A DNA stretch of 64,000 bases from a virus (lineage: Duplodnaviria > Heunggongvirae > Uroviricota > Caudoviricetes). Shown piece after piece: positions 41,243 to 62,822 of the stretch (positions within the stretch are counted from its first letter, which is position 1; each line of letters begins with the position of its first letter). The notes beneath the pieces were generated by a model. That model was not told the origin of the DNA and searched no databases. It saw only the letters and a program-made list of their open reading frames with translations. Position numbers and translations under genes: made by a program. The stretch is taken from IMG/VR virus record IMGVR_UViG_3300044728_000133; one strand, given 5' to 3'.

Positions 41243-41262
41243 TTTCTCCGGATCCGGAGAAT
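41243..41262. repeat. 22-bp palindrome family copy (TTTCTCCGGATCCGGAGAAT) in divergent control region
   Basis: perfect inverted repeat TTCTCCGG/CCGGAGAA. Confidence 0.7.
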
Positions 41263-41303
41263 GCGCCCGGGGCTAGCCCTGGACAGGGATCGCAGGTAGC
41301 TAC

Positions 41304-41337
41304 TTGACATGCGCCGAATAGCTGATATCGTCCGTCT
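41304..41337 (+). promoter_or_regulatory. candidate rightward early promoter (TTGACA-16-TATCGT)
   Basis: consensus -35 and TAnnnT -10 about 40 bp downstream of palindrome copy; about 200-nt structured leader before 41542. Confidence 0.35.
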
Positions 41338-41541
41338 TGCATTCGATACGCGTCGGCTCAGTACCGGCGGGCCAGTCAACGGGCGCATGATCCGAGTACG
41401 CATCAAGGATCGAGCGAGTCGCCTAATCGTGGCCCGAGCATAGGAACCGATTCGGCATAGGTTCGGAAGTCGCCCGGGCGAAGCTTGCGCGGGCATCGGC
41501 CGAACCTGAGACGTGGCCCAACCGAAAGGTAGGGCTACACA

Positions 41542-42303
41542 ATGGCTACACAGACACACAAGGCGCCTACCAAGGCGCAGGCGATCCGAACCGCGAAGTC
41601 TCGCCTTGGCGAGCTAGCGGACGGTATCTCCACCATCGTGGCGGGCATCGGACGCGAGCGCGTCCGGTTGGGTGTCCTCGTGTCAGAGGGTGCCGACCTT
41701 CACGAATCGTTCGAGCTTGGCGATTGGCGCGATTGGGCCAAGTCGCTGATTCCGGGCGAAGCTAACCCGACGTTGTACGCACTCCGGAATACTGGCGCAG
41801 TCGCGCGCGTGCTCGGAGATGCGGTCGGCGATGCATCCCCTCGCAGTCTGACCCCGTTGTATCGATTCATTGCGGCGGCGAAGGATGATGAGGGAAGAAC
41901 GGCCGCGGCCGACGTCATACGCTCTTTGTGGGCGCAGGCGCAGGACAAGGCTAGGGACGGACGTCCCCCGACGGAGGACGTTGTGACATCCCTCGTAGAC
42001 AAAGCGACCCCTAAGGGGACGCGCGGGTCCGCGAAGGGGAAGGCAACGTCAAAGGGTGCCAAGGGTAAGGCGACCGCGAAGGCGACCGCTGATCCCTCGG
42101 TTCTGTACGAGGTCGGTTCTTCGGATCGTGAAGCATGCGGGCAGGCAATCGGTCGCATTCTCGGTCGGTTCACTGACCGCGAGTCCTACCTCGCCGCTTG
42201 CGCGGTCATGCTCGCAACAGTCAAGGTCCGTGAGACGTTCGCATCAACTACGGTTGAGGCAATCGTCAAGCAGGCGAAGGCGACCGCACCGAAAGCAGCG
42301 TAG
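41542..42303 (+). CDS. first rightward gene: hypothetical protein with Lys/Ala-rich histone-like tract
   Basis: 253 aa; KGKATSKGAKGKATAKATA low-complexity basic region. Confidence 0.6.
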   Translation: MATQTHKAPTKAQAIRTAKSRLGELADGISTIVAGIGRERVRLGVLVSEGADLHESFELGDWRDWAKSLIPGEANPTLYALRNTGAVARVLGDAVGDASPRSLTPLYRFIAAAKDDEGRTAAADVIRSLWAQAQDKARDGRPPTEDVVTSLVDKATPKGTRGSAKGKATSKGAKGKATAKATADPSVLYEVGSSDREACGQAIGRILGRFTDRESYLAACAVMLATVKVRETFASTTVEAIVKQAKATAPKAA

Positions 42304-42421
42304 AACCGATGCGGACTGACATTCGTATCGCGCAGTACCTCGCAATACTCGCCGCATGCGCGGCGATTCTGTACTTGGCAACTAGCTAGGTTCATTCGGT
42401 CACGTCTCAGGTATCGGCTAG

Positions 42422-42455
42422 GGCCACCCTTTCGGGGGTGGCCCTTTTTTTGTGC
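42422..42455 (+). terminator. rho-independent terminator
   Basis: gggccaccctttcgggggtggccc followed by ttttttt. Confidence 0.75.
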
Positions 42456-42578
42456 CTTCGGCCGGGCCGGTGGTCGAGCTCGAGCGGCGGCCCACCTCGC
42501 GCGCGCGGATAGGGAGGTATACGCCCGTTCCCGCGTTCCCGTAGCCATAGGCCCACTGATCCCGCGTTCCCGGCGCCG

Positions 42579-42600
42579 CAGGCCCACTGATTCTCCGCTT
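42579..42600. repeat. 22-bp palindrome family copy (GATTCTCCGCTTCCGGAGAATG)
   Basis: consensus match; preceded by two direct repeats of CCCGCGTTCCCG..AGGCCCACTGAT. Confidence 0.7.
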
Positions 42601-42621
42601 CCGGAGAATGCAAAGCCGCTG

Positions 42622-42654
42622 CTTGACAAGCCTGGCAGGGCGTCTGCGACAATG
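42622..42654 (+). promoter_or_regulatory. candidate promoter (TTGACA-19-GACAAT) bracketed by two palindrome copies
   Basis: perfect -35 hexamer; weak -10; between copies at 42579 and 42699. Confidence 0.3.
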
Positions 42655-42698
42655 TGTTTGGTGGTGCGGTCTGCCTTCCGGCGCCGCATAGCCACAGG

Positions 42699-42721
42699 TC
42701 GATTCTCCGGTTTCGGAGAAT
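42699..42721. repeat. 22-bp palindrome family copy (CGATTCTCCGGTTTCGGAGAATC)
   Basis: consensus match, 20 bp upstream of SD gaaagga. Confidence 0.75.
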
Positions 42722-42747
42722 CCCCCACCGCAGCGAAAGGAGTCGCC

Positions 42748-43023
42748 ATGAGCGACCAGACACTAACTGCGGAGGAAGTGCAGAGGCTCGTCGGTGAGAT
42801 TCGCGACGGCGGCTGGCTGAACTTCACGAACCTGGCGAATAAGCGGGCGGTTGCCGCCGAGCTTCGTCGCATGAAGGTTCCGATGTACAGCCGAACGGCT
42901 CACGGCTCGTTGCTCGATCCCCGCTACACGGTCGAGGGGCGCATGCTCCCCGATCTCGGGCTCGCCAACGACTACCGGCACTTCACTCCAAAGCTGTACG
43001 TGCTCGAGGTACCTCGGTACTGA
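42748..43023 (+). CDS. hypothetical protein
   Basis: internal ATG (MSDQTLTAEEVQRL) of ORF 42652..43023 after SD gaaaggag; upstream part of ORF reads through palindrome (FSGFGES artefact). Confidence 0.55.
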   Translation: MSDQTLTAEEVQRLVGEIRDGGWLNFTNLANKRAVAAELRRMKVPMYSRTAHGSLLDPRYTVEGRMLPDLGLANDYRHFTPKLYVLEVPRY

Positions 43024-43084
43024 CTGCCTGCCCCGTCGACTCAGTGCGGCGGGGAGGGGAGTCAATCCCCGAAAGGAGAACTCC

Positions 43085-43195
43085 ATGGCGTATGTCCTCG
43101 CCTTCGGTATCCCTGGGCTCATGGTCGTGTTCTCGACCGCTCTCGGGATTGCCAAGGACGGGTCTCCGCTCCGCCGCTCCTGGTGGACGTGAACC
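43085..43195 (+). CDS. small membrane peptide (36 aa)
   Basis: hand translation MAYVLAFGIPGLMVVFSTALGIAKDGSPLRRSWWT; SD gaaaggag. Confidence 0.4.
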
Positions 43196-43370
43196 CGGCC
43201 ATGGCCGCGTGCCTTCGGGCACAGGCCGCATGGGAACGGGCCGGCGCTCCAGGGCCGGACTCCCAGCTCCCGCTGTTTCCGAGGTATCGGTACTCCCGCC
43301 CGGAAGTAGTGAGAGCAGCACTCAGTGACAGGCCGCGCAAGCGTCGGCCAGCCCGGTAGTTGCCCGTCCC

Positions 43371-43393
43371 GATTCTCCACAACCGGAGAATCC
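43371..43393. repeat. 22-bp palindrome family copy, imperfect (GATTCTCCACAACCGGAGAATCC)
   Basis: 7/8 half-site match. Confidence 0.6.
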
Positions 43394-43435
43394 GGGCGGG
43401 GAGCCCATTCGGGTTTCAGCAGCGAAAGGAGCCAC

Positions 43436-43988: not shown

Positions 43989-44061
43989 GTTCCCCCGCAA
44001 GGGGGCGCTGCCCGGTTCCCGTTAGTTACCGCGAGCGGGAATCGGGGAGCGGAAGCTCCCG

Positions 44062-44083
44062 TATTCTCCACTTCCGGAGAATG
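44062..44083. repeat. 22-bp palindrome family copy, imperfect (TATTCTCCACTTCCGGAGAATG)
   Basis: half-site match. Confidence 0.6.
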
Positions 44084-44111
44084 CGACCTTGCAGCGAAAG
44101 GAGTCTCCCTC

Positions 44112-44388: not shown

Positions 44389-44529
44389 ATGGACATTTCC
44401 GGGCTCACTGTCGCTGCCATCGCAGCGTTGGTACTGAGCGGAGAGGTCACGAAGGCAGCAGCGCAGAAGGCTCTGGCCGCTCGCCAGAACGCGAAGCTCG
44501 ATCGCGAGCTCGCCAAAGCCGCAGCGTAG
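44389..44529 (+). CDS. small Ala-rich peptide (46 aa)
   Basis: hand translation MDISGLTVAAIAALVLSGEVTKAAAQKALAARQNAKLDRELAKAAA; SD cgaaaggag. Confidence 0.35.
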   Translation: MDISGLTVAAIAALVLSGEVTKAAAQKALAARQNAKLDRELAKAAA

Positions 44530-44542
44530 CCCTGCCGTCCCT

Positions 44543-44564
44543 TTTCTCCGGTTTCGGAGAATCG
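44543..44564. repeat. 22-bp palindrome family copy (TTTTCTCCGGTTTCGGAGAATC) with extended flanking complementarity
   Basis: flanked by CCGTCCC / GGGACGG. Confidence 0.7.
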
Positions 44565-44601
44565 GGACGGGAGTGCTAGGCCACTCCGGAAAGGAGAACC
44601 C

Positions 44602-45125: not shown

Positions 45126-45185
45126 GGCTGCGGTCCCTCTCGCTTGACATCATCAGGCAGGGGGCCCGGAACCTTTCGGGGTTCC

Positions 45186-45208
45186 GATTCTCCGGAACAG
45201 GAGAATCC
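45186..45208. repeat. 22-bp palindrome family copy, imperfect (GATTCTCCGGAACAGGAGAATCC)
   Basis: half-sites ATTCTCC/GGAGAAT; preceded by TTGACA and a 7-bp hairpin. Confidence 0.6.
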
Positions 45209-45469: not shown

Positions 45470-45702
45470 GCATGTACGACCGCTCGCTCTACGAGGAAGG
45501 TGAGTGGGAGGACATGTACGGAGAGGGCGAGCCGCGGTTTGCGAACCCGGGCTCGGCCCTACGTGCTTCCTCGGCGTCGAACCCGAGGAACCTCCCCTGC
45601 CCCACCTGCGGCGTCCCGAATCGTCTGACCCCTGCCGATCAGGCACGTGGGTACTGTTGTGACCGATGCGCAGAGACAGCAGAGGGACTCTGGCCCGGTT
45701 AG
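45466..45702 (+). CDS. zinc-ribbon protein
   Basis: 78 aa; CPTCG...CCDRC; ATGA overlap. Confidence 0.5.
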   Translation: MSMYDRSLYEEGEWEDMYGEGEPRFANPGSALRASSASNPRNLPCPTCGVPNRLTPADQARGYCCDRCAETAEGLWPG

Positions 45703-46076
45703 AACGCCGCAAACGGGCACAGGCATACATCGCCCGTGTCCGAGGATTGCTGGTCTGCCGAGACTGTGGCAGACAGCCCATCGAATGGCACCGCGAAGAA
45801 CACGCCGAGGAGCACGGCCACAAGTACCGGGTCGCGCAACTCGGCGTACGCGGTTCCCCAATCTCGCGCATCAAGGAGGAGATGCGAGCAAGCATTCCGC
45901 TCTGCCGTTCGTGCCACATGGCCATGGATGGTCGAACAGCCGCACTCACGGCAGCTCGCCCGTTCAAGAAAGGGCACAGGCTTCCACCGAAGCCATGCGA
46001 TGAATGCGGCGCGCTCAGCAGTCCCCTGCGGCGAGGAATGTGCCGTCGCTGCTACGACGCTGCGCGAAGAAAATAG
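45666..46076 (+). CDS. small HNH endonuclease-like protein
   Basis: 136 aa; CRDCG...H...H...CRSCH...CDECG...CRRC. Confidence 0.55.
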   Translation: MRRDSRGTLARLERRKRAQAYIARVRGLLVCRDCGRQPIEWHREEHAEEHGHKYRVAQLGVRGSPISRIKEEMRASIPLCRSCHMAMDGRTAALTAARPFKKGHRLPPKPCDECGALSSPLRRGMCRRCYDAARRK

Positions 46077-46568: not shown

Positions 46569-46787
46569 ATGAGCAAGCTGAGGAAGCGCTCCCTGTTCCG
46601 CGTCGTCTACCACACACGCAAGGGCGACCCGAGCAGCTTCAACGTCGGCAGTCGCAAGACAGTTGTTGCTGACAAGCTGCAACAAGCGATCGACGCCGTA
46701 AAGGCGCACGAAGCGAAGGTGTGTCCTGACATCGACGTTGTCATCACGGAAGTCGTTCGTGAAGGAATCGAGGTGTGGTCGCATTGA
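46569..46787 (+). CDS. hypothetical protein (alternative start 46545)
   Basis: MSKLRKRSLF after GGAGG SD; ORF-track start 46545 overlaps previous stop. Confidence 0.45.
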   Translation: MSKLRKRSLFRVVYHTRKGDPSSFNVGSRKTVVADKLQQAIDAVKAHEAKVCPDIDVVITEVVREGIEVWSH

Positions 46788-47008
46788 CCACGATCGCCTA
46801 CGACTGCACCCTGCGTCGTCCGGGATGCGCCCTGCTGCAAGCGGCATATGGGGCGACTGTGTCCTCGTTCGACCTGTCCCGCATGGACAGGTGGCTACTT
46901 GCACCCACCGACGACCTCGAGCTGTACGTGGTGACCGACGAGCAGCTTGAGCATCTGATCTTGGTCACAAACGATTCTCCGGAAACGGAGAAAGGAGAAC
47001 AGTCATGA
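46775..47008 (+). CDS. hypothetical protein; 3' end reads through palindrome copy (…NDSPETEKGEQS)
   Basis: 77 aa, GTG start, GC3-rich codons. Confidence 0.4.
   Translation: MVALTTIAYDCTLRRPGCALLQAAYGATVSSFDLSRMDRWLLAPTDDLELYVVTDEQLEHLILVTNDSPETEKGEQS
46973..46992. repeat. 22-bp palindrome family copy merged with SD (GATTCTCCGGAAACGGAGAAAGGAG)
   Basis: consensus match; overlaps CDS 3' end and next RBS. Confidence 0.7.
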
Positions 47009-47364
47009 CCAGTTTCATGGAACGGTACGAAACCGATCCTCAGGTCTACGTTCGTCAGTGCATCGATGAGCTGACCAAGCTCGGAGCTGTCCGCCTGGAG
47101 GCCACGTACTCCGGCGGCAACGACGAGGGCGGCGTCGATGAGATCCAGATCTTCAACGCCGCTGATGAGGCTCTAGCATTCGAGGGCAACTGGGAGCACC
47201 CGCTGCAGGAAGCAGCCAACGACCTGCTCTCGACCGAGTTCTACACCTGGGCGGGGGAGTTCTACGCCTACGGGACGCTCCACGTCGACGTCGTCACGGG
47301 CAAAGCTCGCCGCGAGGGCACATACGAGACACCCCAGGGACGTGAGGACTCCCAGGAGTACTAA
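47005..47364 (+). CDS. hypothetical protein
   Basis: 119 aa; ATGA overlap. Confidence 0.55.
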   Translation: MTSFMERYETDPQVYVRQCIDELTKLGAVRLEATYSGGNDEGGVDEIQIFNAADEALAFEGNWEHPLQEAANDLLSTEFYTWAGEFYAYGTLHVDVVTGKARREGTYETPQGREDSQEY

Positions 47365-47367: not shown

Positions 47368-47811
47368 ATGGCTCACCCACATCACCACGCGGTGTCCTCC
47401 TCACGCAAGTGGGGAGGCACCCCCGAGGACTACATCGAGATCCATTCGTGGTTCGATGAGACAAAGGCGTTTCTGCCTGACTTCCGGCACCGCGCCCTTC
47501 GGCATCACGCCGAGGGCATCTTCCTGTGCGAGCGCATCTTCGGGTACACGATCACGCTGTCGACGTGCGCAAAGTGCGGAGAGACGAAGGATGAGCACTG
47601 GGAGTACGGCGACGAAAACCTACACGTGTTCATACCGAAGCTGATCCCCGTCCGCTGGATCGGGGAGCAGCATGTTCGAGAGGATCTCGGATTCATTCCA
47701 CCCGCATCCCAGTGGCTCGAGCGCATTGCCGTGGAGCCCTGGATGAACCGCTCTCGCAAGCTGAGCCGAGAGCTCGATTCTCCGGTTTCGGAGAAAGGAG
47801 AGACACCATGA
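47368..47811 (+). CDS. hypothetical protein (His-rich N-terminus MAHPHHHAVSSSRKWGG); 3' end reads through palindrome copy
   Basis: 147 aa ORF. Confidence 0.55.
   Translation: MAHPHHHAVSSSRKWGGTPEDYIEIHSWFDETKAFLPDFRHRALRHHAEGIFLCERIFGYTITLSTCAKCGETKDEHWEYGDENLHVFIPKLIPVRWIGEQHVREDLGFIPPASQWLERIAVEPWMNRSRKLSRELDSPVSEKGETP
47776..47795. repeat. 22-bp palindrome family copy merged with SD (GATTCTCCGGTTTCGGAGAAAGGAG)
   Basis: consensus match. Confidence 0.7.
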
Positions 47812-48520: not shown

Positions 48521-48907
48521 ATGATTGACGAGGTCTCATGGCTCGCCGGACTCCTCGAAGGCGAGGGACATTTCGGCGCTGATTGTCGCAAGAGACGTGG
48601 CCATGACTACTGCTACCCGACCGTCCAGCTGAGCATGACCGACAAGGATGTAGTTGAACGTGCCGGAGAGATCATGCGTCGACTGACCGGGAGCACCGCT
48701 GTCGTTATGGCGAAGAAGGTGTATTCAAACCAGCAGACCAAGCAGTGGCGGATCGCCTTGTACGGAGCACCCGCCGAGCTTCTCATGCAGATCGTGCTGC
48801 CCTACATGGGCGAACGACGTACTACTCGAATCAACGAGATCCTCCACAAGAGGATGGAAAGGAGAAACTCCAATGACGAGGTCAGACGTGTATCAGGAGG
48901 TCACTGA
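48521..48907 (+). CDS. LAGLIDADG homing endonuclease (single-motif type)
   Basis: 128 aa; WLAGLLEGEGHF motif; lower GC than neighbours; overlaps ArdC-like gene start by 35 nt. Confidence 0.65.
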   Translation: MIDEVSWLAGLLEGEGHFGADCRKRRGHDYCYPTVQLSMTDKDVVERAGEIMRRLTGSTAVVMAKKVYSNQQTKQWRIALYGAPAELLMQIVLPYMGERRTTRINEILHKRMERRNSNDEVRRVSGGH

Positions 48908-49709
48908 CCGAATCCTCGCTGCACTACGAGCGGGAGTGACGCCCTGGAAGAAGCCCTGGACCGGGGGTGGCCCCGTCTCGATCAAGGGGCGCCCGTACAG
49001 GGGGATCAACACGTTCCTCCTGGGTCTCATGCCATACGGCGATCCCCGCTGGGGAACGTTCAAGGCAATGAAGGAGGCCGGCGGCTCCGTCCGCAAGGGC
49101 GAGAAGGCCACGCACGTGATCCTCTGGAAGCCGGTCAAGCGCCACGACGAGGAGGAGTCGAGCTACATGCTCCTCAAGACCTACCCCGTGTTCAATGCGG
49201 AGCAGTGCGACGACCTGCCCGAGCTTGAGCGCGAGCACGTCCCGCTCGAGGCCGCAGAGCACATCCTCAACGGGTTCGTGGGACCCACTCTGTCCAGCGG
49301 ACAGATGGCCGCGTACTCGGAGACCCTCGACCTGGTCGTCATGCCCAAGGCGGAGACGTTCCTGTCCAGCGAGGGCTACTACTCCACGTTCTTCCATGAG
49401 CTAGTCCACTCGACCGGGCACAAGGACAGGCTAGACCGCCTGGAGTCTGGCGGCTATGGCACCGGCCCGTACGCCAAGGAGGAGCTGGTCGCCGAGATGG
49501 GCGCGGCCATGCTCTGCGGCTTCGCCGGGATCGAGAACTTGGATCAGTCGGCGTCGTACATCGACGGCTGGCTGGCTGCGCTCACGCGTGACCCGAAGCT
49601 CGTGGTCCAGGCGGCAGCGCAAGCACAAAGAGGAGCCGACCTCATTCTCGGCACCACATTCGAAGATTCTCCGGATTCGGAGAATCGGAAGGAGGCACTA
49701 GTCTCATGA
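48873..49709 (+). CDS. ArdC-like antirestriction protein (N-terminal DUF1738 ssDNA-binding + C-terminal zincin-like HExxH)
   Basis: 278 aa; YQEVTDRILAALRAGVTPW...RGINTFLL; FHELVHSTGH; 3' end reads through palindrome copy (EDSPDSENRKEALVS). Confidence 0.65.
   Translation: MTRSDVYQEVTDRILAALRAGVTPWKKPWTGGGPVSIKGRPYRGINTFLLGLMPYGDPRWGTFKAMKEAGGSVRKGEKATHVILWKPVKRHDEEESSYMLLKTYPVFNAEQCDDLPELEREHVPLEAAEHILNGFVGPTLSSGQMAAYSETLDLVVMPKAETFLSSEGYYSTFFHELVHSTGHKDRLDRLESGGYGTGPYAKEELVAEMGAAMLCGFAGIENLDQSASYIDGWLAALTRDPKLVVQAAAQAQRGADLILGTTFEDSPDSENRKEALVS
49665..49686. repeat. 22-bp palindrome family copy (GATTCTCCGGATTCGGAGAATC)
   Basis: perfect 9-bp arms. Confidence 0.75.
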
Positions 49710-51526: not shown

Positions 51527-51738
51527 CCAATCAGGAAGCACTTGATCTCCTGTCGGAGTTCACCGAGACGACCAGCTCCGCTGTGCAGATAGCGGTGTGG
51601 GCTGGTGCGTTCTTGCAGGAGGGAGGCGAGCCCACATGGGACGCCGTCAAGAGCGTCTCGGATATTGCGTCCACGCTCATGGCTCAGAGCGCGAAGATCG
51701 CAAACCTGCGTGAGATCTACGACGAGATCACGCCATGA
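51523..51738 (+). CDS. hypothetical protein
   Basis: 71 aa; SD aaaaggagag. Confidence 0.5.
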   Translation: MTNQEALDLLSEFTETTSSAVQIAVWAGAFLQEGGEPTWDAVKSVSDIASTLMAQSAKIANLREIYDEITP

Positions 51739-51757
51739 TTCTCCGAATCCGGAGAAT
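51736..51757. repeat. 22-bp palindrome family copy (GATTCTCCGAATCCGGAGAATC)
   Basis: perfect arms, followed by gaaaggag SD. Confidence 0.75.
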
Positions 51758-51772
51758 CGAAAGGAGAGGACG

Positions 51773-52788: not shown

Positions 52789-53189
52789 GCGAGCCCTGGG
52801 TCCCCGACTACCTACCCGAGAGCGACGATTACCACGACCCCATGCCCGGGCGCTGCCCCGAATGTCGGACAATCCTCGACGTGCTCCCGAGCGGAGGGGC
52901 GATCTGCCCCGAGCATGGAGCGTGCCGTCCGGTGTACGGGAGCAAACCGGACGATTCTCCGGAAGCGGAGAATCCGAACGAGAGCCTCGACACCAAGGAG
53001 CTACGCAAGCTCGGCGAGCTGGTCTCGTGGGCGCTCGACCAGAACCACGACACCGCTGACGGGAACTACTTCTGGTTCCTAGCCGACGAAGAGGACGGCG
53101 AGACGAGCGATGACGTGAAGGAGATCTTCAACCGCGTACTCGACAAGCTCGCCCGCGGGAAGGAAGAAGACGATGGCGACCAAGACTAA
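52785..53189 (+). CDS. acidic hypothetical protein with N-terminal zinc-ribbon; contains an internal palindrome copy (DDSPEAENP)
   Basis: 134 aa; CPECR...CPEHGAC. Confidence 0.5.
   Translation: MSEPWVPDYLPESDDYHDPMPGRCPECRTILDVLPSGGAICPEHGACRPVYGSKPDDSPEAENPNESLDTKELRKLGELVSWALDQNHDTADGNYFWFLADEEDGETSDDVKEIFNRVLDKLARGKEEDDGDQD
52953..52974. repeat. 22-bp palindrome family copy inside a CDS (GATTCTCCGGAAGCGGAGAATC)
   Basis: perfect arms. Confidence 0.75.
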
Positions 53190-54090: not shown

Positions 54091-54245
54091 AGACGATCAT
54101 CATCCAGTTGACCGAGGAGGAAGCTGAGTCTCTACGTATGGCTGGCGAGACTCGGCTGGAGACACTCGATGCCGCCGGGATGGATGACCCCGTCCTAGTC
54201 AGGGTCATGAAGCGGATCATCCAGCGTGCGGAGAGTGTGTTCTGA
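54087..54245 (+). CDS. small hypothetical protein (52 aa)
   Basis: hand translation MKTIIIQLTEEEAESLRMAGETRLETLDAAGMDDPVLVRVMKRIIQRAESVF; ATGA overlaps both ends. Confidence 0.4.
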   Translation: MKTIIIQLTEEEAESLRMAGETRLETLDAAGMDDPVLVRVMKRIIQRAESVF

Positions 54246-55039: not shown

Positions 55040-55061
55040 GATTCTCCGGATTCGGAGAATC
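55040..55061. repeat. 22-bp palindrome family copy (GATTCTCCGGATTCGGAGAATC)
   Basis: perfect arms, 20 bp upstream of HNH gene SD. Confidence 0.75.
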
Positions 55062-55084: not shown

Positions 55085-55576
55085 ATGGAGACCTGGCGAC
55101 CCGTAGCTGAACTAGAGGATCGCTATGAAGTGAGCGACTCAGGCTACGTACGTCGCCGCAGAGACGGACACGTACTGGCCCATCACCTGATCGGTCCCTA
55201 CCACAGGGTCTGTCTGTGGTCGGGCACAAAGTCACGGAGGTTCATGGTCCACCGACTGGTTGCTGCTGCTTTCATCGGGCCGCGCCCAGCCGGATATGAG
55301 GTGAACCACAAAGACGGCAATCCCTCGCACAACGCCGTCTCGAACCTGGAGTACACAACACCCTCCGAGAACGTAAGGCATTCGTTCCGAGAACTGGATC
55401 GAGTGCCTGCTCACGGAGAGAAGCACGGCTCATCCGTTCTGACCGATGAGCTTGTCCTTGCCCTCCGCGCTGAACGCGCGCAGGGCACCACCTCGGCAGC
55501 ACTGGCACGAAAGATTGGGGTTGACCCCTCGACCGTGCAGCGTGCTGTCAACGGAACAACATGGAGGCACCTATGA
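55085..55576 (+). CDS. HNH homing endonuclease (NUMOD4 + HNH_3 + C-terminal HTH)
   Basis: 163 aa; WRPV...YEVSDSGYVRR; HRLVAAAFIGPRPAGYEVNHKDGNPSHNAVSNLEYTTPSEN. Confidence 0.75.
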   Translation: METWRPVAELEDRYEVSDSGYVRRRRDGHVLAHHLIGPYHRVCLWSGTKSRRFMVHRLVAAAFIGPRPAGYEVNHKDGNPSHNAVSNLEYTTPSENVRHSFRELDRVPAHGEKHGSSVLTDELVLALRAERAQGTTSAALARKIGVDPSTVQRAVNGTTWRHL

Positions 55577-57381
55577 CTGTTGGAACACAACCTCTCCCCG
55601 GGATGGTCTATACGGGCGAGAGCTGCCCGACATGTGTGGGCATGGGCATCCTGGAGGCGACTGATCTCTTCTGCGGAGCAGGGGGATCAAGCCTTGGCCT
55701 GGAGCATGTGCGCTGCCACGATTGTGGTCGGCAGCTCATCCAGGTAACTCAATGCCTCAATCACTGGGATCTCGCGGTCCAAGCACATAACGCCAACTTC
55801 CCAGAGGCCGACCACGACCTGCACGACGTCGAGGTCGTACCGGCCAACCGCTTCCGGAGAACACCGCTGCTGTGGGCATCCCCGGAGTGCGTGCATCACG
55901 CGTACTGCCGAGGCAAGAAGTCTGATGATGCCTCAGCCGAGCGTTCCCGCATGACCATGTGGGACGTCCACCGCTTCGCCGAGTTCCACCGCTACGACGC
56001 GGTCATCGTCGAGAACGTGATCGAGGCCCGACTATGGGAGCCGTTTGACGAGTGGCGAGCCGGGATCGAGAAGCTCGGGTACACGAGCAAGATCGTGTTC
56101 TTCAACTCGCAGTTCGCACTGCCCACCCCACAGTCACGTGACCGCATGTACGTGGTGTTCTGGCGCAACGGGATTCCTGCTCCCCAGCTCGACTTCGAGC
56201 CCATGTCCTGGTGCTCGGAGTGTGAGATCGTCGTGAAGGGGATGCAGTGGTGGAAGAAGCCGAGTCCTGGGTCACTGCGCACGCAGCCCGGGAAGTTCGA
56301 GTGGGGACGCTACGGCGCGCAGTACACGTACGTGTGCCCCCATTGCTTCCAGAACGTCGCTCCGGCAGTGATCGGAGCAAAGTCGATCATCGACTGGTCT
56401 ATGCCCATGACACGCATCGGCGACCGAGTGAAGGATCTAGCGCCGAAGACACGGGCTCGGATCAAAACCGGCATCGAGCGTCTCTCCACCCAGGAACCGG
56501 TGACCGTCCAGGTCGGCGGAAACCTGTACGAGCGGCCCGGGTACGCGCGCGTGTGGAGCGTGAATGATCCGCTGCGCACCGTGACAGGCACTCCGTACAT
56601 GGGTGTCGTCGTGCCGAAGGCAGCCATCCTGCGGACAGGCGGACAGAGCGCAGCCCCGAAGAGCGTCGAGAGCCCAATGGGAACGATCACTGCTCACGAC
56701 CGGCAGTTGTCGCTCTTGGTCCCAGAGTCGAATGGCAACGGCAATGGCAATGGCCACGTTGAAGTTGCTGCGCAGGCGACCGAGATGCTGGTGCGGGTGA
56801 ACCGCGGCGGCGATCGCCGACCGCTCACGATCAATGAGCCAGTACCCACAGTGGCCGGTCACGGGGAGATGGCGCTCGTGAGCTTCCGCAACCACGGAGA
56901 CGCTGCCCCGATCGACAAGCCAGCGCACACGATTACCGCCGGCGGGTATCACCACGGCCTGCTCGTCTACAACGGCAACCCCGGGTTCGTTCGGGATCTC
57001 GAGGACGCTGCCGGAACAGTCACCGGGCGTGACAAGCAGTCGCTTCTAGTGCCCTACTACGGCCAATCAAACGGACGCCCGACGGCGGTACCGCTCGGAG
57101 CTGTGACGACCAAGGACCGCGAAGCCCTGGTCGTGACTGAGGCCGACATCGACGACTGCCTCTTCCGGATGCTCCAGTGGCCCGAGCTACTCGCCGCTCA
57201 GCAGATGCACCTGATGCCGAATGGTGAGTCGTACCGCCTGACGGCGAAGCGCAAGAACAAGCGCGGTCAGTTCGTCGAGCTCTCGAACGAACTGCGCACG
57301 AAGATGATCGGCAACGCGGTCTCCGCCCCAGTGGCGACCATGCTCGGGGAGGCAGTGGTGCAGTCACTGATGGCGGCATGA
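55573..57381 (+). CDS. DNA (cytosine-5)-methyltransferase with large variable region
   Basis: motif I DLFCGAGG, motif IV ASPEC, ENV (IVENVIE), motif X MIGNAVSAPVATMLGEAV; GGAGG SD, ATGA overlap with HNH stop; internal (AATGGC)4 repeat encoding NGNGNGNG. Confidence 0.8.
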   Translation: MTVGTQPLPGMVYTGESCPTCVGMGILEATDLFCGAGGSSLGLEHVRCHDCGRQLIQVTQCLNHWDLAVQAHNANFPEADHDLHDVEVVPANRFRRTPLLWASPECVHHAYCRGKKSDDASAERSRMTMWDVHRFAEFHRYDAVIVENVIEARLWEPFDEWRAGIEKLGYTSKIVFFNSQFALPTPQSRDRMYVVFWRNGIPAPQLDFEPMSWCSECEIVVKGMQWWKKPSPGSLRTQPGKFEWGRYGAQYTYVCPHCFQNVAPAVIGAKSIIDWSMPMTRIGDRVKDLAPKTRARIKTGIERLSTQEPVTVQVGGNLYERPGYARVWSVNDPLRTVTGTPYMGVVVPKAAILRTGGQSAAPKSVESPMGTITAHDRQLSLLVPESNGNGNGNGHVEVAAQATEMLVRVNRGGDRRPLTINEPVPTVAGHGEMALVSFRNHGDAAPIDKPAHTITAGGYHHGLLVYNGNPGFVRDLEDAAGTVTGRDKQSLLVPYYGQSNGRPTAVPLGAVTTKDREALVVTEADIDDCLFRMLQWPELLAAQQMHLMPNGESYRLTAKRKNKRGQFVELSNELRTKMIGNAVSAPVATMLGEAVVQSLMAA

Positions 57382-57693: not shown

Positions 57694-58422
57694 ATGAAGC
57701 CGCGCCTGCTCGACCTCTTTTGCGGCGCTGGCGGCGCTGCCATGGGCTACCACCGCGCAGGCTTCGAGGTCGTGGGCGTGGACATCAAGCCGCAGCCGAG
57801 GTATCCGTTCGAGTTTGTTCAGGCTGACGCGATCAACGGTCTTGGGGCGATGGTCGAAGGTTGGCGACTCGCTGCTAGCGAGTGGCGACTCGAGGACTTC
57901 GACGCGATCCACGCGAGCCCGCCGTGTCAACGCTGGTCGACGGCCACCAAGCGCAACGGGACGCAGGGCGAGCATCCCGACCTGATTGCACAGACGCGAG
58001 AGTTGCTAAAGGAGACGGGGCTGCCGTATGTCATCGAGAACGTGGTTGGAGCTCCGCTGGATCACCCGATGATGCTGTGCGGCTCGAAGTTCAACCTGAG
58101 CGCTGACGGCTACCGGCTGAAGCGCCATCGCCTCTTTGAGCTGAGTTGGGACAGATACCTCTTCCAGTACGTAAGAGACGGATGCCGCTGCTCTCGAGAC
58201 TCTAGGCCGGTCATGGACGTCACGGGTGGCGGCCCCACCCGTAAAGCACGCACAGACGGAGGCGGAGGCCGACCCTACAAGGGCACGGCAGACCAGGCCC
58301 GCCGCATCATGGGCATCGACTGGATGACAAAGGCCGAGCTGAACGAGGCCGTCCCGCCGGCGTACACCGAATTCGTGGGTACTCAATTGCTCGCGCACCT
58401 GACGGCGACGGTCGCAGCGTGA
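57694..58422 (+). CDS. DNA (cytosine-5)-methyltransferase (compact)
   Basis: start MKPRLLDLFCGAGG; motif IV ASPPCQ, ENV YVIENVVG; ORF-track upstream extension begins with GTG. Confidence 0.75.
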   Translation: MKPRLLDLFCGAGGAAMGYHRAGFEVVGVDIKPQPRYPFEFVQADAINGLGAMVEGWRLAASEWRLEDFDAIHASPPCQRWSTATKRNGTQGEHPDLIAQTRELLKETGLPYVIENVVGAPLDHPMMLCGSKFNLSADGYRLKRHRLFELSWDRYLFQYVRDGCRCSRDSRPVMDVTGGGPTRKARTDGGGGRPYKGTADQARRIMGIDWMTKAELNEAVPPAYTEFVGTQLLAHLTATVAA

Positions 58423-60387: not shown

Positions 60388-60410
60388 GCGGCGCAGACGC
60401 CGCAGCTACC

Positions 60411-60432
60411 GATTCTCCGGAAGCGGAGAATC
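60411..60432. repeat. 22-bp palindrome family copy (GATTCTCCGGAAGCGGAGAATC)
   Basis: perfect arms, in 147-bp intergenic region before HNH gene. Confidence 0.75.
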
Positions 60433-60534
60433 CCACTGAGCAAGATCCCGAGGAGTACCCCGCTGACTGGCGGGATGCATATGAACCCCCCATCCCCGTC
60501 GATGACATACCTTTTGACTGAGGGACGGTAGATC

Positions 60535-60903
60535 ATGGCCAAGCGCAAATGTGACTGCGGAGAATGCAAGAGGTGCAAGCACCGCGAGTATATGAACGCT
60601 TGGTACCGCCGTCCCGGTAACGCCGAGAGAGTGAGGGGATGGGCGTCTCGCTACCGAGGAGAGAACATCGAGCAAGTCAGGGGATACGACCGAGCAAGAG
60701 GATTCAGAGAAACGGACTCCATGAAGATCACAGCGCGCAGGGCGGTGAGACTCGCTATTGAACGCGGGGACATGAAGAGAGAACCCTGTGAGGTCTGCGA
60801 AGCAGAGCCAGCGGACGCTCACCACGACGACTACAACAAGCCGCTAGAGGTGCGCTGGCTGTGCGAGAAACATCACGGCAAAGAGCATCGACTGGTTGCG
60901 TAG
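60535..60903 (+). CDS. HNH endonuclease
   Basis: 122 aa; CEVCEAEPADAHHDDYNKPLEVRWLCEKHH; N-terminal CDCGECKRCKH. Confidence 0.65.
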   Translation: MAKRKCDCGECKRCKHREYMNAWYRRPGNAERVRGWASRYRGENIEQVRGYDRARGFRETDSMKITARRAVRLAIERGDMKREPCEVCEAEPADAHHDDYNKPLEVRWLCEKHHGKEHRLVA

Positions 60904-60912
60904 GGAGAAGAA

Positions 60913-61458
60913 ATGGACATCGCCAATGAGAAGCAGTCACTGATGCAGCGAGGCGTTGAGAAGCTCGCCACAGACATCGTCAACGAGAAGCTCAACCGAC
61001 TCATCAGTCAGTACGCCGACGAAGGAAATGAAGAACATGAGAAGCTCGTCCCATACATCGGTTGGTACTGGCGATGGGTCGACTTCGCTGGGGATGATCC
61101 CTACATCCCGATCGGGCACTGTGGTGAGTTCGTCGGATTCATGGAGAACAACAAGTGGGACTATCCCGAGCGCGGCCTGACACAAGAAGAAGTGGACCAG
61201 GTACGGGAGATCGTGTGCACAGCGTACGACCTGAGCGCAGAAGGCGGAGCCCTGTCAGACATCATCCAAAACACGAAAGACAAGCTCGCAGAACTGTGGC
61301 CGCTCATGCAGACGTTCGAGATCCAGAAGAGCGGCTACTGGATCTATGGACCGCAGGGACAGGTCGGCCATGCGGATACGCGCGAGACTGCCGACTTCAT
61401 GATCGTTTCCCTCCAGGAGGCAGCTCCTGGGCTTCGCTATTGGAAGGAGGAAGTGTGA
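60913..61458 (+). CDS. hypothetical protein (lower GC, A-rich codons)
   Basis: 181 aa. Confidence 0.55.
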   Translation: MDIANEKQSLMQRGVEKLATDIVNEKLNRLISQYADEGNEEHEKLVPYIGWYWRWVDFAGDDPYIPIGHCGEFVGFMENNKWDYPERGLTQEEVDQVREIVCTAYDLSAEGGALSDIIQNTKDKLAELWPLMQTFEIQKSGYWIYGPQGQVGHADTRETADFMIVSLQEAAPGLRYWKEEV

Positions 61459-61703
61459 TGGAAGGAATGTCAGCTCCAGACCTGAACGCAACTGAGGCAG
61501 CTCGCGCTGAGGCGCTGGAAGCCCGAGTACACGAAATCGTTCGAGAGGAGATTGCTTCCCTCGCCGGCCTCGCCCTACGGCGGCTGCAGGACGAGAACTT
61601 CACGCGCTCGATCCAAGGAAACATGGCCGCTATGAAGGCAAAGGAAGTAATCGGCCACTTCTGGGGTGAGGTGCTGTCTGAGTACGGGAGTGAAGAGGCA
61701 TGA
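61458..61703 (+). CDS. hypothetical protein
   Basis: internal ATG MEGMSAPDLNATEAARAEALE. Confidence 0.5.
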   Translation: MEGMSAPDLNATEAARAEALEARVHEIVREEIASLAGLALRRLQDENFTRSIQGNMAAMKAKEVIGHFWGEVLSEYGSEEA

Positions 61704-62068
61704 CCATCACCGAGAACGACACCGTCACCGAACGGATCGCGAAGATCCGCAAGACGTTCCTCGGGTACGAGGACCACGGCATCTTCACCGGGATTCTCGA
61801 TCTCGACTACGGAGGCTCGGGGCAGGGAGCAGGGACGCTTTGCCTGGACTACAACGATCGCGAACTCGGCCGTCACGTCGAGTCCACTCCCGGCAGCGTC
61901 CACCGCTGGATCATCGGCTGCCTGCGCGCCTGTGGTGTCGACCAGTGGGAGAAGGTCGCAGGGCGAACCGTCATTGCGATCTGCGAGGACGGTTGGGTCA
62001 TCGGGCTGAAACCACTGCCAACCGAACGCGGAAAGGTGTTCATGTTCTCTGAGGTCGGCGATGGGTAA
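61700..62068 (+). CDS. hypothetical protein
   Basis: 122 aa; ATGA overlap. Confidence 0.55.
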   Translation: MTITENDTVTERIAKIRKTFLGYEDHGIFTGILDLDYGGSGQGAGTLCLDYNDRELGRHVESTPGSVHRWIIGCLRACGVDQWEKVAGRTVIAICEDGWVIGLKPLPTERGKVFMFSEVGDG

Positions 62069-62202
62069 GGCCGCACGCAACCGCCACATCCGTCGACAGG
62101 CGTACATCCTCGACCCAGTAGGGACGAAGGTGCGCTCCATCGCTCGAGCTCTCTGGCGACACGGCCGCATGCCACTGCCGAAGAGGGAGGGTCAGTTGTG
62201 AG
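62065..62202 (+). CDS. small basic peptide (45 aa)
   Basis: hand translation MGKAARNRHIRRQAYILDPVGTKVRSIARALWRHGRMPLPKREGQL; ATGA overlap. Confidence 0.35.
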
Positions 62203-62383
62203 CACACCACCACTGTGTCCTCGCTGTGGCGAGAAGAACTTCCAAACGCAGTACGTGCCCGGAGCGGAGGAAGACGAGATCGAGCCGATCAAGGTATGTC
62301 AGTCCTGCGGCCTCTTCTTCGACGGTGAGCGCTGGTGGGCCGAGCTAGGGAACGAATGGACGATGGCGGAGTCGGGCGAGTGA
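62198..62383 (+). CDS. zinc-ribbon protein
   Basis: 61 aa; CPRCG...CQSCG; GTG start with GTGA overlap. Confidence 0.45.
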   Translation: MSTPPLCPRCGEKNFQTQYVPGAEEDEIEPIKVCQSCGLFFDGERWWAELGNEWTMAESGE

Positions 62384-62577
62384 TCCAGGTCGAGATCGTC
62401 AGGCGCCAGAAGAACAAGCCAGCGATCGCGGACTACGACGTCTATCTCTACATGCCCGAATCTCCCGACGGCGGGAGGATCATCCAGCACCACACCGTCG
62501 TCGAGCACTTCGAGAGAACCCGAGGAGCAAGTGAACTCCTGAGAGAAGCCGTCGAGGCACTCGGGAGGAAGTTGTGA
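62380..62577 (+). CDS. hypothetical protein
   Basis: GTG start with GTGA overlap inside ORF 62335..62577. Confidence 0.4.
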   Translation: MIQVEIVRRQKNKPAIADYDVYLYMPESPDGGRIIQHHTVVEHFERTRGASELLREAVEALGRKL

Positions 62578-62822
62578 CCCAGGAAGAGATCAATGCGGCC
62601 CTCAGCCGGATGGGACCCGAAGAGCGTGCGTTCCTGAAGGGGATCGTCCATTCAGATTCGCCGACCGCGGAGAACGAAGCCCGAACCTTCGTCGAGCTGT
62701 TTCACTACTTCCCCGAATCGGCTTTTGAGGAAGGGATACGCGTGGTCCAGGATCTACCTCCCTTCGTCCTTCCCTCGTTTGTGAGAGCAGAGGCGCAGAG
62801 AGCGTGGGAGGCGTGGGTATGA
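62574..62822 (+). CDS. hypothetical protein containing degenerate palindrome copy (HSDSPTAENE)
   Basis: 82 aa; GTG start with GTGA overlap. Confidence 0.45.
   Translation: MTQEEINAALSRMGPEERAFLKGIVHSDSPTAENEARTFVELFHYFPESAFEEGIRVVQDLPPFVLPSFVRAEAQRAWEAWV
62655..62675. repeat. degenerate copy of palindrome family (GATTCGCCGACCGCGGAGAAC)
   Basis: half-site-level similarity, in-frame DSPTAEN. Confidence 0.4.

Follow-up and report, generated by a model that had tools for sequence, protein, structure and literature searches.

A sequence of 22 bp with two-fold symmetry recurs in the genome of an uncultured, actinobacteriophage-like virus, with 17 copies in the window (the whole stretch of 64,000 nucleotides analysed here). 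Are these copies protein-binding sites on DNA, elements of the early mRNA, or passengers?

A dispersed family of palindromes

A preliminary description had listed 16 copies of a perfect palindrome with a spacer of 3 or 4 nt. The existence of a dispersed palindrome family is confirmed, with corrections. A search for ATTCTCC-N6-GGAGAAT allowing up to two mismatches recovers 17 copies with identical spacing, including one at 20765 that had been overlooked, and the copies placed at 42579 and 42699 actually start at 42589 and 42701. Only six are perfect 9+9 palindromes; the part that never varies is TTCTCC/GGAGAA, and the gap between the 9-nt arms is 4 nt in every copy. The number of copies is far beyond chance, as had been claimed: GATTCTCCG-N4-CGGAGAATC with up to two mismatches is matched 14 times, whereas 100 shuffles predict 0.00, the same motif with a 5-nt spacer has no match in the window, and isolated half-sites occur there at about chance frequency. 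GC content is about 62% rather than the 65% given earlier. The rightward early arm carries 15 of the 17 copies, and 10 of these 15 are intergenic although non-coding DNA makes up only 17% of the arm (P=2.7e-5); ten sites in the window end 9–42 nt upstream of a start codon. The described placement ahead of gene starts therefore stands, as do the two copies fused to a Shine-Dalgarno (SD) sequence and the pair bracketing a TTGACA promoter, an arrangement kept in two relatives. The copies are listed below, with orthologs given as contig and position in relatives; H hairpins (GGAG..CUCC) are taken up further on.

20765..20786: inside the leftward SLOG/DUF2493-like gene 20639-20989; perfect TTCTCCGG-TT-CCGGAGAA dyad, coding for the conserved peptide GFLRNRRM, with an AGA codon
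32748..32769: in an 835-bp gap of the leftward arm, directly after a GC-rich hairpin; counterpart by position L167 2496, which adjoins a homolog of gene 33283-34023
41242..41263: in the gap separating divergent promoters P_L and P1, 40 bp ahead of the P1 -35; both arms complete
42589..42610: 12 bp upstream of the P2 -35; orthologs L159:1236 and L160:2283
42701..42722: in the P2 leader, 25 nt before start codon 42748; orthologs L159:1517 and L160:2398
43371..43392: long form, capping hairpin 43353-43433; ortholog L159:1845
44062..44083: preceded by H hairpin 44046-44059
44542..44563: long form, capping hairpin 44524-44600; H hairpin 44570-44587 then follows
45186..45207: preceded by H-type hairpin 45168-45185
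46973..46994: within the final 11 codons of gene 46775-47008 and fused with the SD of gene 47005
47776..47797: in the C-terminal tail of DUF6915 gene 47368-47811, fused to the SD of gene 47808
49665..49686: in the tail of ArdC-like gene 48873-49709, 19 nt before start codon 49706
51737..51758: over the stop codon of gene 51523-51738; start codon 51773 follows after 14 nt
52953..52974: inside gene 52785-53189, coding for the inter-domain linker DDSPEAEN
55040..55061: 23 nt before the start of HNH endonuclease gene 55085-55576
60411..60432: in the intergenic gap 60388-60534
62655..62676: degenerate, inside ORF 62574-62822

The reading frame that hosts copy 52953 is a real gene, judging by its comparison with relative L074, in which 22 of 29 differences fall at third codon positions.

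Sites and promoters in the early region

The neighbourhood of the sites contains the following features.

40934..41128, - strand: Arc-like RHH gene of ~64 aa, probably leaderless, with GGCACC repeats over its promoter P_L (~41120-41160)
41304..41331, + strand: promoter P1, TTGACA-16-TATCGT with TG before it, driving the 253-aa gene; homologs in L160, L166, L167 and L171
41542..42303, + strand: gene of an orphan 253-aa protein, a candidate binder, under its own promoter P1
42420..42445, + strand: strong intrinsic terminator, an 11-bp stem then T7, closing the 253-aa transcription unit; equivalents in L166 and L167
42529..42590, + strand: two copies of a 31-bp tandem repeat, containing AGCCAYAGG motifs and abutting copy 42589
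42623..42653, + strand: promoter P2, TTGACA-19-GACAAT preceded by TG, which heads the early operon; kept in L159, L160 and L167

P2 is a predicted promoter whose spacer exceeds the reach of the consensus promoter scan. As to the tandem repeat abutting copy 42589, L013 and L021 have arrays of a twelve-bp unit several kb upstream of TerL, and L080 has one too.

The reading that we tentatively prefer, at somewhat short of an even chance, is that the 22-bp elements are putative operators for a dimeric phage regulator, forming a palindromic network of the stoperator or KorB kind. In all eight lineages seen, a site precedes the promoter of the 253-aa gene: one copy, which lacks an outer stem and is not part of the P1 transcript, lies 27–75 bp upstream of the P1 -35 (besides the window, in L160, L166, L167, L168, L170, L171 and L172). 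In three lineages a further copy lies 1–15 bp upstream of the P2 -35, and the sites flanking P2 are 112–115 bp apart (112 bp centre to centre for copies 42589 and 42701). Because the copies upstream of P1 and P2 fall outside the predicted transcripts, they argue for operators and against an element of the mRNA; a copy kept inside a conserved late gene also favours operators. What counts against operators is that site and promoter are variably spaced.

Conservation of the sites in relatives

The preliminary description had called for comparison with related phages, and the motif proves to be present and conserved in them. Over seven orthologous pairs, none of 84 positions in the TTCTCC/GGAGAA cores has changed, compared with 12 of 42 in the central 6 nt, and all seven sites occur in both compared genomes, with no presence/absence polymorphism. 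More distant relatives (L166, L167, L170, L171 and L172) carry 12–14 copies per long contig in equivalent places, 14 of them in L167, and display the symmetric variants TTCTCAG..CTGAGAA, TTATCAG..CTGATAA and WWCTCCG..CGGAGWW, each common to most or all copies in its genome. Such genome-wide, lineage-specific variants imply a co-evolving trans-acting factor with two-fold symmetry, although symmetric changes would also be expected from compensatory evolution of an RNA stem, which counts against operators. All 55 sites, from 9 contigs, share one spacing, including those that have lost the innermost pair; at the centre, 50 of them have an A/T dinucleotide, which persists through A<->T changes. Dimer operators typically show such fixed spacing and an A/T centre, whereas a hairpin loop has no need of them. 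By these comparisons the palindromes are a lineage-wide system in which selection acts strongly on the spacing and on the sequence of each half-site, with symmetric change between lineages. The sites are also linked to the 253-aa gene, a co-occurrence that is partly by construction since the relatives were recovered from metagenomes via that protein.

The same data bear on the idea that the family is an evolutionary device or passenger, either a selfish mini-repeat or short conserved boundary sequences of mobile hairpin-plus-SD cassettes that, as PeSL cassettes do in T4-type phages, would promote shuffling of early genes by recombination. In relative A, gene 42748-43023 is missing, with the indel junction 5 nt past palindrome 42701; the long-form cassettes at window 44542 and L167 12441 are ~85% alike with different neighbouring genes, as read from their flanks; and a homing-type HNH gene lies directly behind copy 55040. 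However, identity is limited to the 6–7-bp arms while loops and flanks differ, unlike the outcome of gene conversion or transposition, and the absence of core changes indicates that the sequence as such is under selection. Each element spans 22 bp, no transposase or RAYT-type gene was seen, and elsewhere in IMG/VR and GTDB the motif gives single chance matches only, the sole non-chance matches in JGI metagenomes being two short contigs of relative A. The MITE-like scenario, which the preliminary description had tied to a motif absent or non-conserved in relatives, is contradicted by the conserved orthologous positions and invariant arms, and we regard this explanation as very improbable.

DNA site or RNA stem

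A more serious alternative, possible if on balance unlikely, is that the palindrome is the apical stem-loop of an intercistronic hairpin in the early mRNA, controlling processing, stability or translation of the downstream cistron. Its recogniser would be a sequence-specific phage RNA-binding protein or endoribonuclease, or a host RNase; the long-form stem, ~25 bp, would be an RNase III-type substrate, and the adjoining H hairpin could be an anti-anti-SD switch. In the window, L167 and L172, 33 of the 37 early-arm sites downstream of P1 lie 7–48 nt before a start codon, a distance that fits a function in mRNA at least as well as operators, and in L167 nearly all early intergenic gaps longer than ~57 nt have a site. 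Across three genomes, nine long-form copies coincide exactly with the apex of a ~18-bp hairpin whose outer stems covary (90% of cells paired versus 79% in shuffles, with 0/500 shuffles as high), 8 pairs having changed on both sides; on the transcribed plus strand there are 18 G.U against 4 A.C cells. The H hairpin, also covarying, adjoins 17/40 sites. These hairpin data weigh against operators. Between lineages the core stem likewise survives two-sided changes, positions 8/15 and 5/18 going from C:G to A:U.

Within the palindrome itself, pairing at variable positions is no better than in shuffled data (419/500 shuffles as high). Among 22 distinct sites (24 window-clade sites), pairs 1-22, 2-21 and 9-14 are unpaired in 10, 9 and 5, respectively; positions 8/15 in L167 include A:C, T:T and G:T; and L172 freely mixes AACTCCG and TTCTCCG half-sites, giving hybrids with three A:A mismatches. 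That variable positions break pairing indicates selection on half-site sequence rather than on pairing. Recognition of RNA hairpins is usually loop-centred, and conserved arms around a free centre of constant length are the opposite pattern, which favours operators. Most copies have only 6–9 bp, and RNase III needs a longer stem. The palindromes match no Rfam family, and the proteins scanned include none with an RNase or RNA-binding domain. The right arm had also been considered as an SD-like GGAG; this is refuted by the relatives' arms, which read CTGAGAA or CTGATAA. Thus the preliminary proposal of an operator network or an RNA hairpin is supported in part: both alternatives survive, and the comparative data strengthen the case for a functional system that a trans-acting factor would read.

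Ordinary terminators or attenuators between early genes would account for GC-rich, intergenic stem-loops, some directly after stop codons. We consider them extremely improbable: no T-run follows the sites, the plus-strand scan flags only the true terminator at 42420, fourteen terminators within one operon would be self-defeating, and a generic terminator has no need of one shared arm sequence.

A candidate binder

The preliminary description had nominated three binders. Neither the RHH protein (40934-41077) nor the LuxR-type HTH protein (36893-37501) has a homolog in 19.8 kb of L167, despite 14 sites there, and the RHH gene has its own GGCACC array over its promoter. The HTH protein (54245-54787) has no homolog in those parts of the L167 and L172 contigs that the analysis covered. 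The 253-aa protein is a better candidate. Its N- and C-terminal domains are both helical, the former DNA-binding-like, and are joined by a flexible, basic, disordered linker rich in Lys, Ala and Gly, a layout recalling ParB/KorB-type proteins. A structural model weakly resembles the DNA-binding domains of ParB/SopB/KorB, Foldseek against PDB gave no match, and neither a Pfam HTH nor a ParB N-terminal domain was found; the weakness of the fold similarity counts against operators, and the basic disordered stretch could equally bind RNA. Within the family, Arg at residue 80 occurs only in genomes with TCAG-type sites and Thr at residue 104 only in those with TCCG-type sites, a pattern that is at most a lead in favour of operators.

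In another reading, the palindromes would be centromere-like or nucleation sites (of parS, sopC or NBS type) at which a ParB-like protein organises, partitions or compacts the phage genome instead of regulating transcription; the plasmid-prophage N15 likewise has dispersed centromere sites. The many palindromic sites, densest across a few kb, and the linker and C-terminal domain of the 253-aa protein would suit this. Yet the window has no ParA-type ATPase, nor does it contain an integrase that would support a prophage lifestyle, and the 253-aa protein is without the ParB N-terminal (CTPase) domain. Known parS-type sites are 13–16 bp with a conserved centre, whereas here the centre is free, and the tight association with gene starts is left unexplained; we judge such a role very improbable.

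Proposed mechanism

For putative operators, the most likely binder would be the 253-aa protein, probably immediate-early, which has a strong promoter P1 and a terminator of its own. We infer that the target is double-stranded DNA rather than RNA and that the effect is repression. Each monomer of the sequence-specific dimer would read one half-site, (GA)TTCTCC(G), the two half-sites lying at a fixed 12-bp centre-to-centre distance across the A/T centre. Binding upstream of P1 would autoregulate the 253-aa gene, binding on both sides of P2 would repress it through occlusion or looping, and binding at about a dozen early-operon sites and two in the leftward arm would block or silence transcription, so that early gene expression would be timed or shut off.

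The palindromes may thus be a symmetric counterpart of stoperators and KorB operators. A palindromic stoperator analogue had been thought unusual, but actinophages already offer examples of dispersed dyad repeats: in Cluster O mycobacteriophages, TGTTCGG-N3-CCGAACA is present in 34 copies (PMC4351075). With this precedent, the present repeats are a variant within a known kind of element.

A dispersed dyad element concentrated in the rightward early arm

A motif scan of the window recovered 14 matches to GATTCTCCG-N4-CGGAGAATC with no more than two mismatches, against 0.00 expected from shuffles, and none with the same arms around a 5-nt spacer. The relaxed pattern ATTCTCC-N6-GGAGAAT finds 17 copies, with identical spacing in all of them. 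This comparison with shuffles confirms the dispersed palindrome family reported in the preliminary description, with amendments: the 16 copies counted there had missed 20765, two coordinates are corrected to 42589 and 42701, and the arms described as perfect are perfectly paired (9+9) in only six copies. Its interpretation of the family, as operators for a dimeric regulator or as RNA elements next to the ribosome-binding site, is partly supported. An alignment of 24 sites has TTC.CC and GGAGAA as its invariant columns, and isolated half-sites are no commoner in the window than expected by chance. The sites have dyad symmetry, and their central asymmetry, as read from aligned sites in the rightward arm, has no consistent orientation (nine copies one way, four the other). 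At least one CCGG lies within every good copy, and the early arm also encodes two C5-cytosine methyltransferases (55573-57381 and 57694-58422). Rfam and tRNA scans gave no match, and a literature search with the motif string yielded nothing but primer sequences unrelated to it.

The window is a ~62% GC tailed-phage genome, for which we built our own gene map from codon usage. The leftward arm, which runs from ~41.1 to 0.5 kb, contains TerL (34636-36336), the portal gene (18184-20082) and the gene for a collagen-repeat protein; the rightward arm of small early genes begins at 41.5 kb. Fifteen copies of the palindrome lie in the rightward arm, at a density of 0.66/kb as against 0.05/kb in the leftward arm, and 10 of these 15 are intergenic even though the non-coding fraction of the arm is only 17% (P=2.7e-5). 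Ten copies end 9-42 nt 5' of a start codon and upstream of a strong AAAGGAG Shine-Dalgarno sequence (SD), which sits 5-35 nt downstream of the site. Three copies overlap the end of the preceding gene, taking up its last codons, and three more lie inside genes. Among the coding copies, 52953 encodes a linker in a real gene, as judged by third-position substitutions relative to a related genome, and 20765 encodes GFLRNRRM, a conserved peptide in a SLOG-like protein, with use of an AGA codon. Intrinsic terminators are a very unlikely explanation: on the plus strand, a terminator scan (GC-rich hairpin and T-run) picked out none of the sites. A role as activator sites for promoters of the genes that follow was rejected, because a promoter would not fit into the 9-20 nt before the start codon and because the two early promoters, P1 and P2, lie at varying distances from the sites.

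Several further features of the gene map were recorded. All five rightward-arm copies in coding sequence (46973, 47776, 49665, 52953 and 62655) share one frame, GAT-TCT-CCG, giving Asp-Ser-Pro..Glu-Asn in C-terminal tails or a linker; the chance of a shared frame is ~1 in 81. TerL and portal are separated by ~14 kb of small genes (20283-34023), including SLOG/DUF2493-like and Band_7 genes, and the two leftward-arm palindromes sit at the two ends of this insert; TerL relatives are split likewise. The collagen-repeat protein (9335-12352, 1005 aa) has long collagen triple-helix repeats (Pfam E=2e-101) and is presumably a tail fibre. The early arm also holds an ArdC-like anti-restriction/metallopeptidase gene (48873-49709) and two free-standing HNH endonuclease genes, 45666-46076 and 55085-55576, the latter with NUMOD4, HNH_3 and HTH domains and placed directly behind a palindrome copy.

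Sites are conserved in relatives and change symmetrically between lineages

With 48 kb of the window as query, megablast and blastn recovered no described relative from INPHARED, just short pieces of methylase or ArdC sequence, and TerL identity does not exceed 33%. When IMG/VR, GTDB genomes and JGI metagenomes were scanned directly for the motif, they gave only single chance matches, apart from two short contigs of a genome referred to here as relative A. Among TerL relatives in IMG/VR (L011-L021, 49-59% identical) the TerL-insert-portal layout is common, and the palindrome family was not found in the parts examined. Eighty loci around homologs of the methylase at 57694-58422 proved to be unrelated phages. 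One of them (L137; IMGVR_UViG_3300044502_000026, 2066-13652) has at least eight copies of a different hairpin of its own, TCCCCGC-(GCAG/GAAG)-GCGGGGA, some of them apparently within coding sequence.

A search with the 253-aa protein encoded at 41542-42303, by comparison, recovered the window's own 90-kb contig, relative A (L159 and L074, 81-92% nucleotide identity to the window) and relative B (L160, 71-77%). All seven orthologous sites are present in both genomes compared, with no presence/absence polymorphism, and no transposase was seen; this speaks against a selfish REP- or MITE-like element, which the preliminary description had raised as the alternative to conservation in related phages. 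Substitutions at these sites spare the core, and the A/T centre dinucleotide is kept through four A<->T changes.

Changes at the seven orthologous sites
Twelve core positions: 0/84
Central six positions: 12/42
Outer four positions: 4/28

A profile search with the 253-aa family then yielded ~50 remote homologs, and contigs were fetched for six of them. In each of the six, a palindrome built in the same way precedes a P1-like promoter of the 253-aa homolog gene by 27-75 bp. The two long contigs show the complete pattern again: L167 carries 14 copies in 19.8 kb, all intergenic, with 11 of the 14 lying 10-48 nt before a start codon and one at the position equivalent to window 32748; L172 carries 12 copies in 11.1 kb, again all intergenic. 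Over all lineages the spacing is constant in 55/55 sites and the centre is A/T in 50/55. The half-site itself differs between lineages, always symmetrically.

Half-sites by lineage
Window, relatives A and B: TTCTCCG..CGGAGAA
L166, L167 and L170: TTCTCAG..CTGAGAA
L171: TTATCAG..CTGATAA
L172: WWCTCCG..CGGAGWW

The right arm was also considered as an SD or anti-SD mimic, and rejected because variants without GGAG exist.

Sites flank the promoters of the switch region

The divergent region between the two arms has the following order.

Features of the switch region
Leftward strand: Arc-like RHH gene, first of the leftward arm, with its promoter P_L overlaid by GGCACC repeats
41085-41165: four to five GGCACC/GGTGCC repeats, covering the RHH promoter (TTGGTA-17-TACGAT) and gene start
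41242: palindrome copy, after P_L and 40 bp before P1
41304-41331 (+): P1, a near-consensus promoter, followed by a long leader and the orphan 253-aa gene
42420-42445: strong terminator closing the 253-aa unit
42529-42590: 31-bp tandem repeat (two copies) with AGCCAYAGG motifs, adjoining P2
42589: palindrome copy
42623-42653 (+): P2, at the head of the early operon
42701: palindrome copy, before the first early gene

P2 and both of its flanking sites are conserved in the three genomes compared, where the upstream site lies 12, 1 and 15 bp from the -35 element. The distance from site to P1 is 40 bp in one genome and 75 bp in another. The RHH gene is probably leaderless, its product apparently ~64 aa and not 47 aa, and the GGCACC/GGTGCC repeats are probably its own operator array. 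Relative A has a ~170-bp duplication of the P2 region with a small terminator of its own. It lacks gene 42748-43023, and the indel junction falls 5 nt after palindrome 42701 (window 42728-43084). In the TerL relatives L013 (3-230) and L021 (2574-2730), a 12-bp unit (CCCTGGCAGCGT, CCCTAGCCGCAG) is repeated 15-20 times in arrays several kb upstream of TerL, and the methylase-linked contig L080 (3908-4160) has a similar array with unit GGGCCGCAGCCT. The 31-bp and 12-bp arrays could be origin iterons or sites for another regulator.

Covarying hairpins flank a palindrome that does not covary within a clade

Two types of hairpin accompany the sites. In the long form, the palindrome stands at the apex of a larger hairpin, and the complete cassette runs TAG stop, outer stem, palindrome, outer stem, H hairpin, SD. 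The H hairpin is a small module of the form GGAG(N2-3)-loop-(N2-3)CUCC, in which the middle pairs covary and plus-strand G.U pairs occur. It is placed 1-3 nt before the palindrome or directly after the long-form stem, and adjoins 4/15 sites in the window, 10/13 in L167 and 3/12 in L172; its CUCC arm could pair with the downstream SD instead. Long-form cassettes are far better conserved between distant genomes than the neighbouring genes (~85% between window 44542 and L167 12441, flanks read by eye), and their occurrence at non-orthologous loci suggests cassette-like reuse.

Hairpins associated with the sites
Long-form cassettes, window: 43353-43433, 44524-44600
Long-form cassettes, L167: 11429, 11867, 12441, 13633, 16576
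Long-form cassettes, L172: 2645, 3553
H hairpins, window: 44046-44059, 45168-45185, 43400-43417, 44570-44587, with many more in L167 and L172

These structures bear on whether the palindrome is read in DNA or acts at the level of the mRNA, the main alternative reading, which we consider somewhat less likely. Nine long-form copies in three genomes cap an outer stem of ~18 bp that starts at the upstream stop codon, and this stem covaries: 90% of cells are paired compared with 79% in shuffles, eight pairs are changed on both sides, and a score as high is attained by 0/500 shuffles. In slid controls the paired fraction is 36-54%. On the transcribed strand the outer stem has 18 G.U cells and only 4 A.C cells. 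The second covarying hairpin, GGAG..CUCC, adjoins 17/40 sites, and the placement of sites just 5' of the SD is strikingly regular in the window, L167 and L172. The inner palindrome behaves differently. Its variable positions break pairing, and within a clade pairing is no better than in shuffles and there is no covariation; between clades, both sides do change together. L167 sites contain A:C and T:T cells, and L172 joins AA-type to TT-type half-sites to give unpaired hybrids. Spacing stays rigid even where the closing pair is lost, and it is the arms that are conserved while the loop is free and the centre A/T. The only universally conserved copy lies upstream of a promoter and has no outer stem, and other copies abut the P2 -35 element. 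A stem of about two helical turns, of the type cut by RNase III, is present only in the long forms (2/17 copies in the window, 5/14 in L167 and 2/12 in L172); the remaining copies offer 6-9 bp.

The RNA features are properties of the flanks and not of the palindrome itself. If a DNA operator were needed in a short intercistronic region that also required an RNA hairpin, the apex of that hairpin would be the only possible place for it, and a palindromic operator there would merely extend the stem. For this reason we tentatively favour, though not strongly, the reading of the palindromes as operators for a dimeric phage regulator. A further, quite improbable possibility is that the palindrome has a dual use and is recognised in the DNA duplex as well as at the tip of an mRNA hairpin. 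In one version, a single phage protein would act at both levels, regulating the promoters and gating the processing or translation of ~12 early cistrons. In the other, a new RNA-binding regulator or endoribonuclease would recognise the sequence of the perfect stem rather than the loop.

A candidate reader of the sites

A plain structural hairpin would have no need of a shared arm sequence, and gene conversion would not spare loops and flanks; judged from these sequence patterns, there must therefore be a sequence-specific trans-acting reader with two-fold symmetry that co-evolves with the sites. The preliminary description had put forward the RHH protein (40934-41077) and a LuxR-type protein (36893-37501) as candidate binders. 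Neither has a homolog in 19.8 kb of L167, which keeps 14 sites. The RHH protein, absent from this examined part of L167 and supplied with GGCACC repeats of its own, was rejected; the LuxR/GerE protein, which has an HTH of the NarL/DosR type, was set aside without being dismissed. The palindrome motif was not found in contigs with LuxR/GerE homologs (L163-L165).

Of the proteins encoded in the early arm of the window, three recur as homologs in the examined parts of L167 and also of L172. They are the 253-aa protein, a protein of 119 aa (47005-47364) and one of the DUF6915 family. The 253-aa gene makes up a separate immediate-early unit bordered by sites at either end, and its product is our candidate reader. 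A structure prediction from three sequences was too poor for use (pLDDT 51); the confident model from a 44-sequence alignment (pLDDT 88) places a disordered linker rich in Lys, Ala and Gly between one helical domain and another at the C-terminus, a predicted fold that we regard as a lead. The protein had no match by Foldseek against the PDB or in Pfam. The family has no N-terminal ParB/Srx (CTPase) domain, and the scanned window proteins include no ParA. Arg occupies residue 80 in 5/5 proteins from genomes with TCAG-type sites and in 0/4 from TCCG-type genomes, and residue 104 splits likewise, with Thr in TCCG-type and Val or Phe in TCAG-type genomes. As these are two of only seven clade-discriminating columns, their apparent tracking of site type provides a further lead.

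Comparison with known repeat systems

Dispersed palindromic operators are known from plasmids and phages. KorB operators (OB) of RK2 and the sites of ParB-family proteins (parS, sopC, Noc NBS) are palindromes of 13-16 bp with a conserved centre. Their number, ~12 per replicon, and their placement, some abutting a -35 element, some 80-190 bp from the start site and some far from promoters, recall the present family. They are bound by dimers of an HTH protein whose flexible linker leads to a dimerisation domain at the C-terminus; these proteins also have a ParB/CTPase domain at the N-terminus and act with ParA or KorA, and neither the CTPase domain nor such a partner was detected in the window. 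The conserved inverted repeats (CIRs) of the temperate Streptomyces phage phiC31 are 17-bp palindromes bound by its repressor at more than 12 loci, many of them in the early region. They share with the present family the arrangement of palindromes at many early loci of an actinophage, and are unrelated in sequence. By analogy, RK2 KorB operators and phiC31 CIRs appear to be the best functional parallels. At the RNA level, the RNase III sites of T7 early mRNA and the PeSL cassettes of T4-type phages resemble the present sites in that stem-loops precede many early genes between cistrons and are reused like cassettes; the stems of T7 sites are longer and irregular, and PeSLs include a promoter. 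Those elements share structure, whereas the window family shares one arm sequence.

The closest described system is the 17-bp dyad repeat of Cluster O mycobacteriophages, TGTTCGG-N3-CCGAACA, with 34 copies, invariant arms and a TTT/AAA centre (PMC4351075). The window sites have the same design, with invariant dyad-symmetric arms, a variable A/T-rich centre and many dispersed copies, mostly intergenic and denser in one arm. Further common points are the lack of orientation bias, phages that are not obviously temperate and a displaced terminase gene (PMC4351075). The sequence is unrelated (GATTCTCCG-N4-CGGAGAATC here), and Cluster O has 7-bp arms and a 3-bp centre. The authors describe Cluster O repeats as not closely tied to translation starts (PMC4351075), whereas most copies here are placed 7-48 nt 5' of a start codon. 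Neither a position inside covarying hairpins nor an associated protein was described for the Cluster O repeats.

Cluster A stoperators, as summarised in the papers cited here, are asymmetric 13-14 bp sites oriented with transcription and bound by the monomeric immunity repressor of a temperate phage (L5 gp71), with a proposed block to transcription elongation (PMC4351075, PMC3203893). On that description, the two systems have in common many copies of a short site in short operon gaps plus an operator at an early promoter; the window sites, in contrast, are palindromic and have no consistent orientation. No integrase or gp71-like immunity repressor was seen among the window proteins scanned, with 26 kb of the source contig lying beyond the window. 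Cluster K start-associated repeats also resemble the present sites in their association with gene starts. SAS is an asymmetric 13-bp sequence, GGGATAGGAGCCC, that overlaps the SD and is tied to many gene starts, and ESAS are imperfect 17-bp inverted repeats just 5' of the SD with a variable 4-13 bp spacer; the authors propose a role in translation, possibly via a phage or host factor (PMC3203893). The SAS 13-mer is absent from the window sites, which have a constant spacing and do not include the SD.

Implications

Several clusters of actinobacteriophages are known to carry short dispersed repeats (stoperators, SAS/ESAS, Cluster O), most of them without a known function or binder. What is added here is conservation across a lineage, symmetric changes of specificity, the placement of sites within RNA hairpins and a candidate protein linked to the sites. 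Together these form a testable set: at least six diverged lineages with both orthologous and paralogous sites, fixed geometry, natural specificity variants (TCCG, TCAG, TATCAG and WWCTCCG) and a candidate protein with two variant-tracking residues. Whether the element is a DNA operator or an RNA element, and which protein reads it, could be answered by a few binding and reporter experiments. Should either version of the improbable dual use hold, a genome-wide, co-evolving code between protein and site would govern the entire early programme of an uncultured actinophage lineage. If the 253-aa family is the reader, it would represent a new family of global phage regulators and a source of orthogonal operator/regulator pairs for high-GC hosts.
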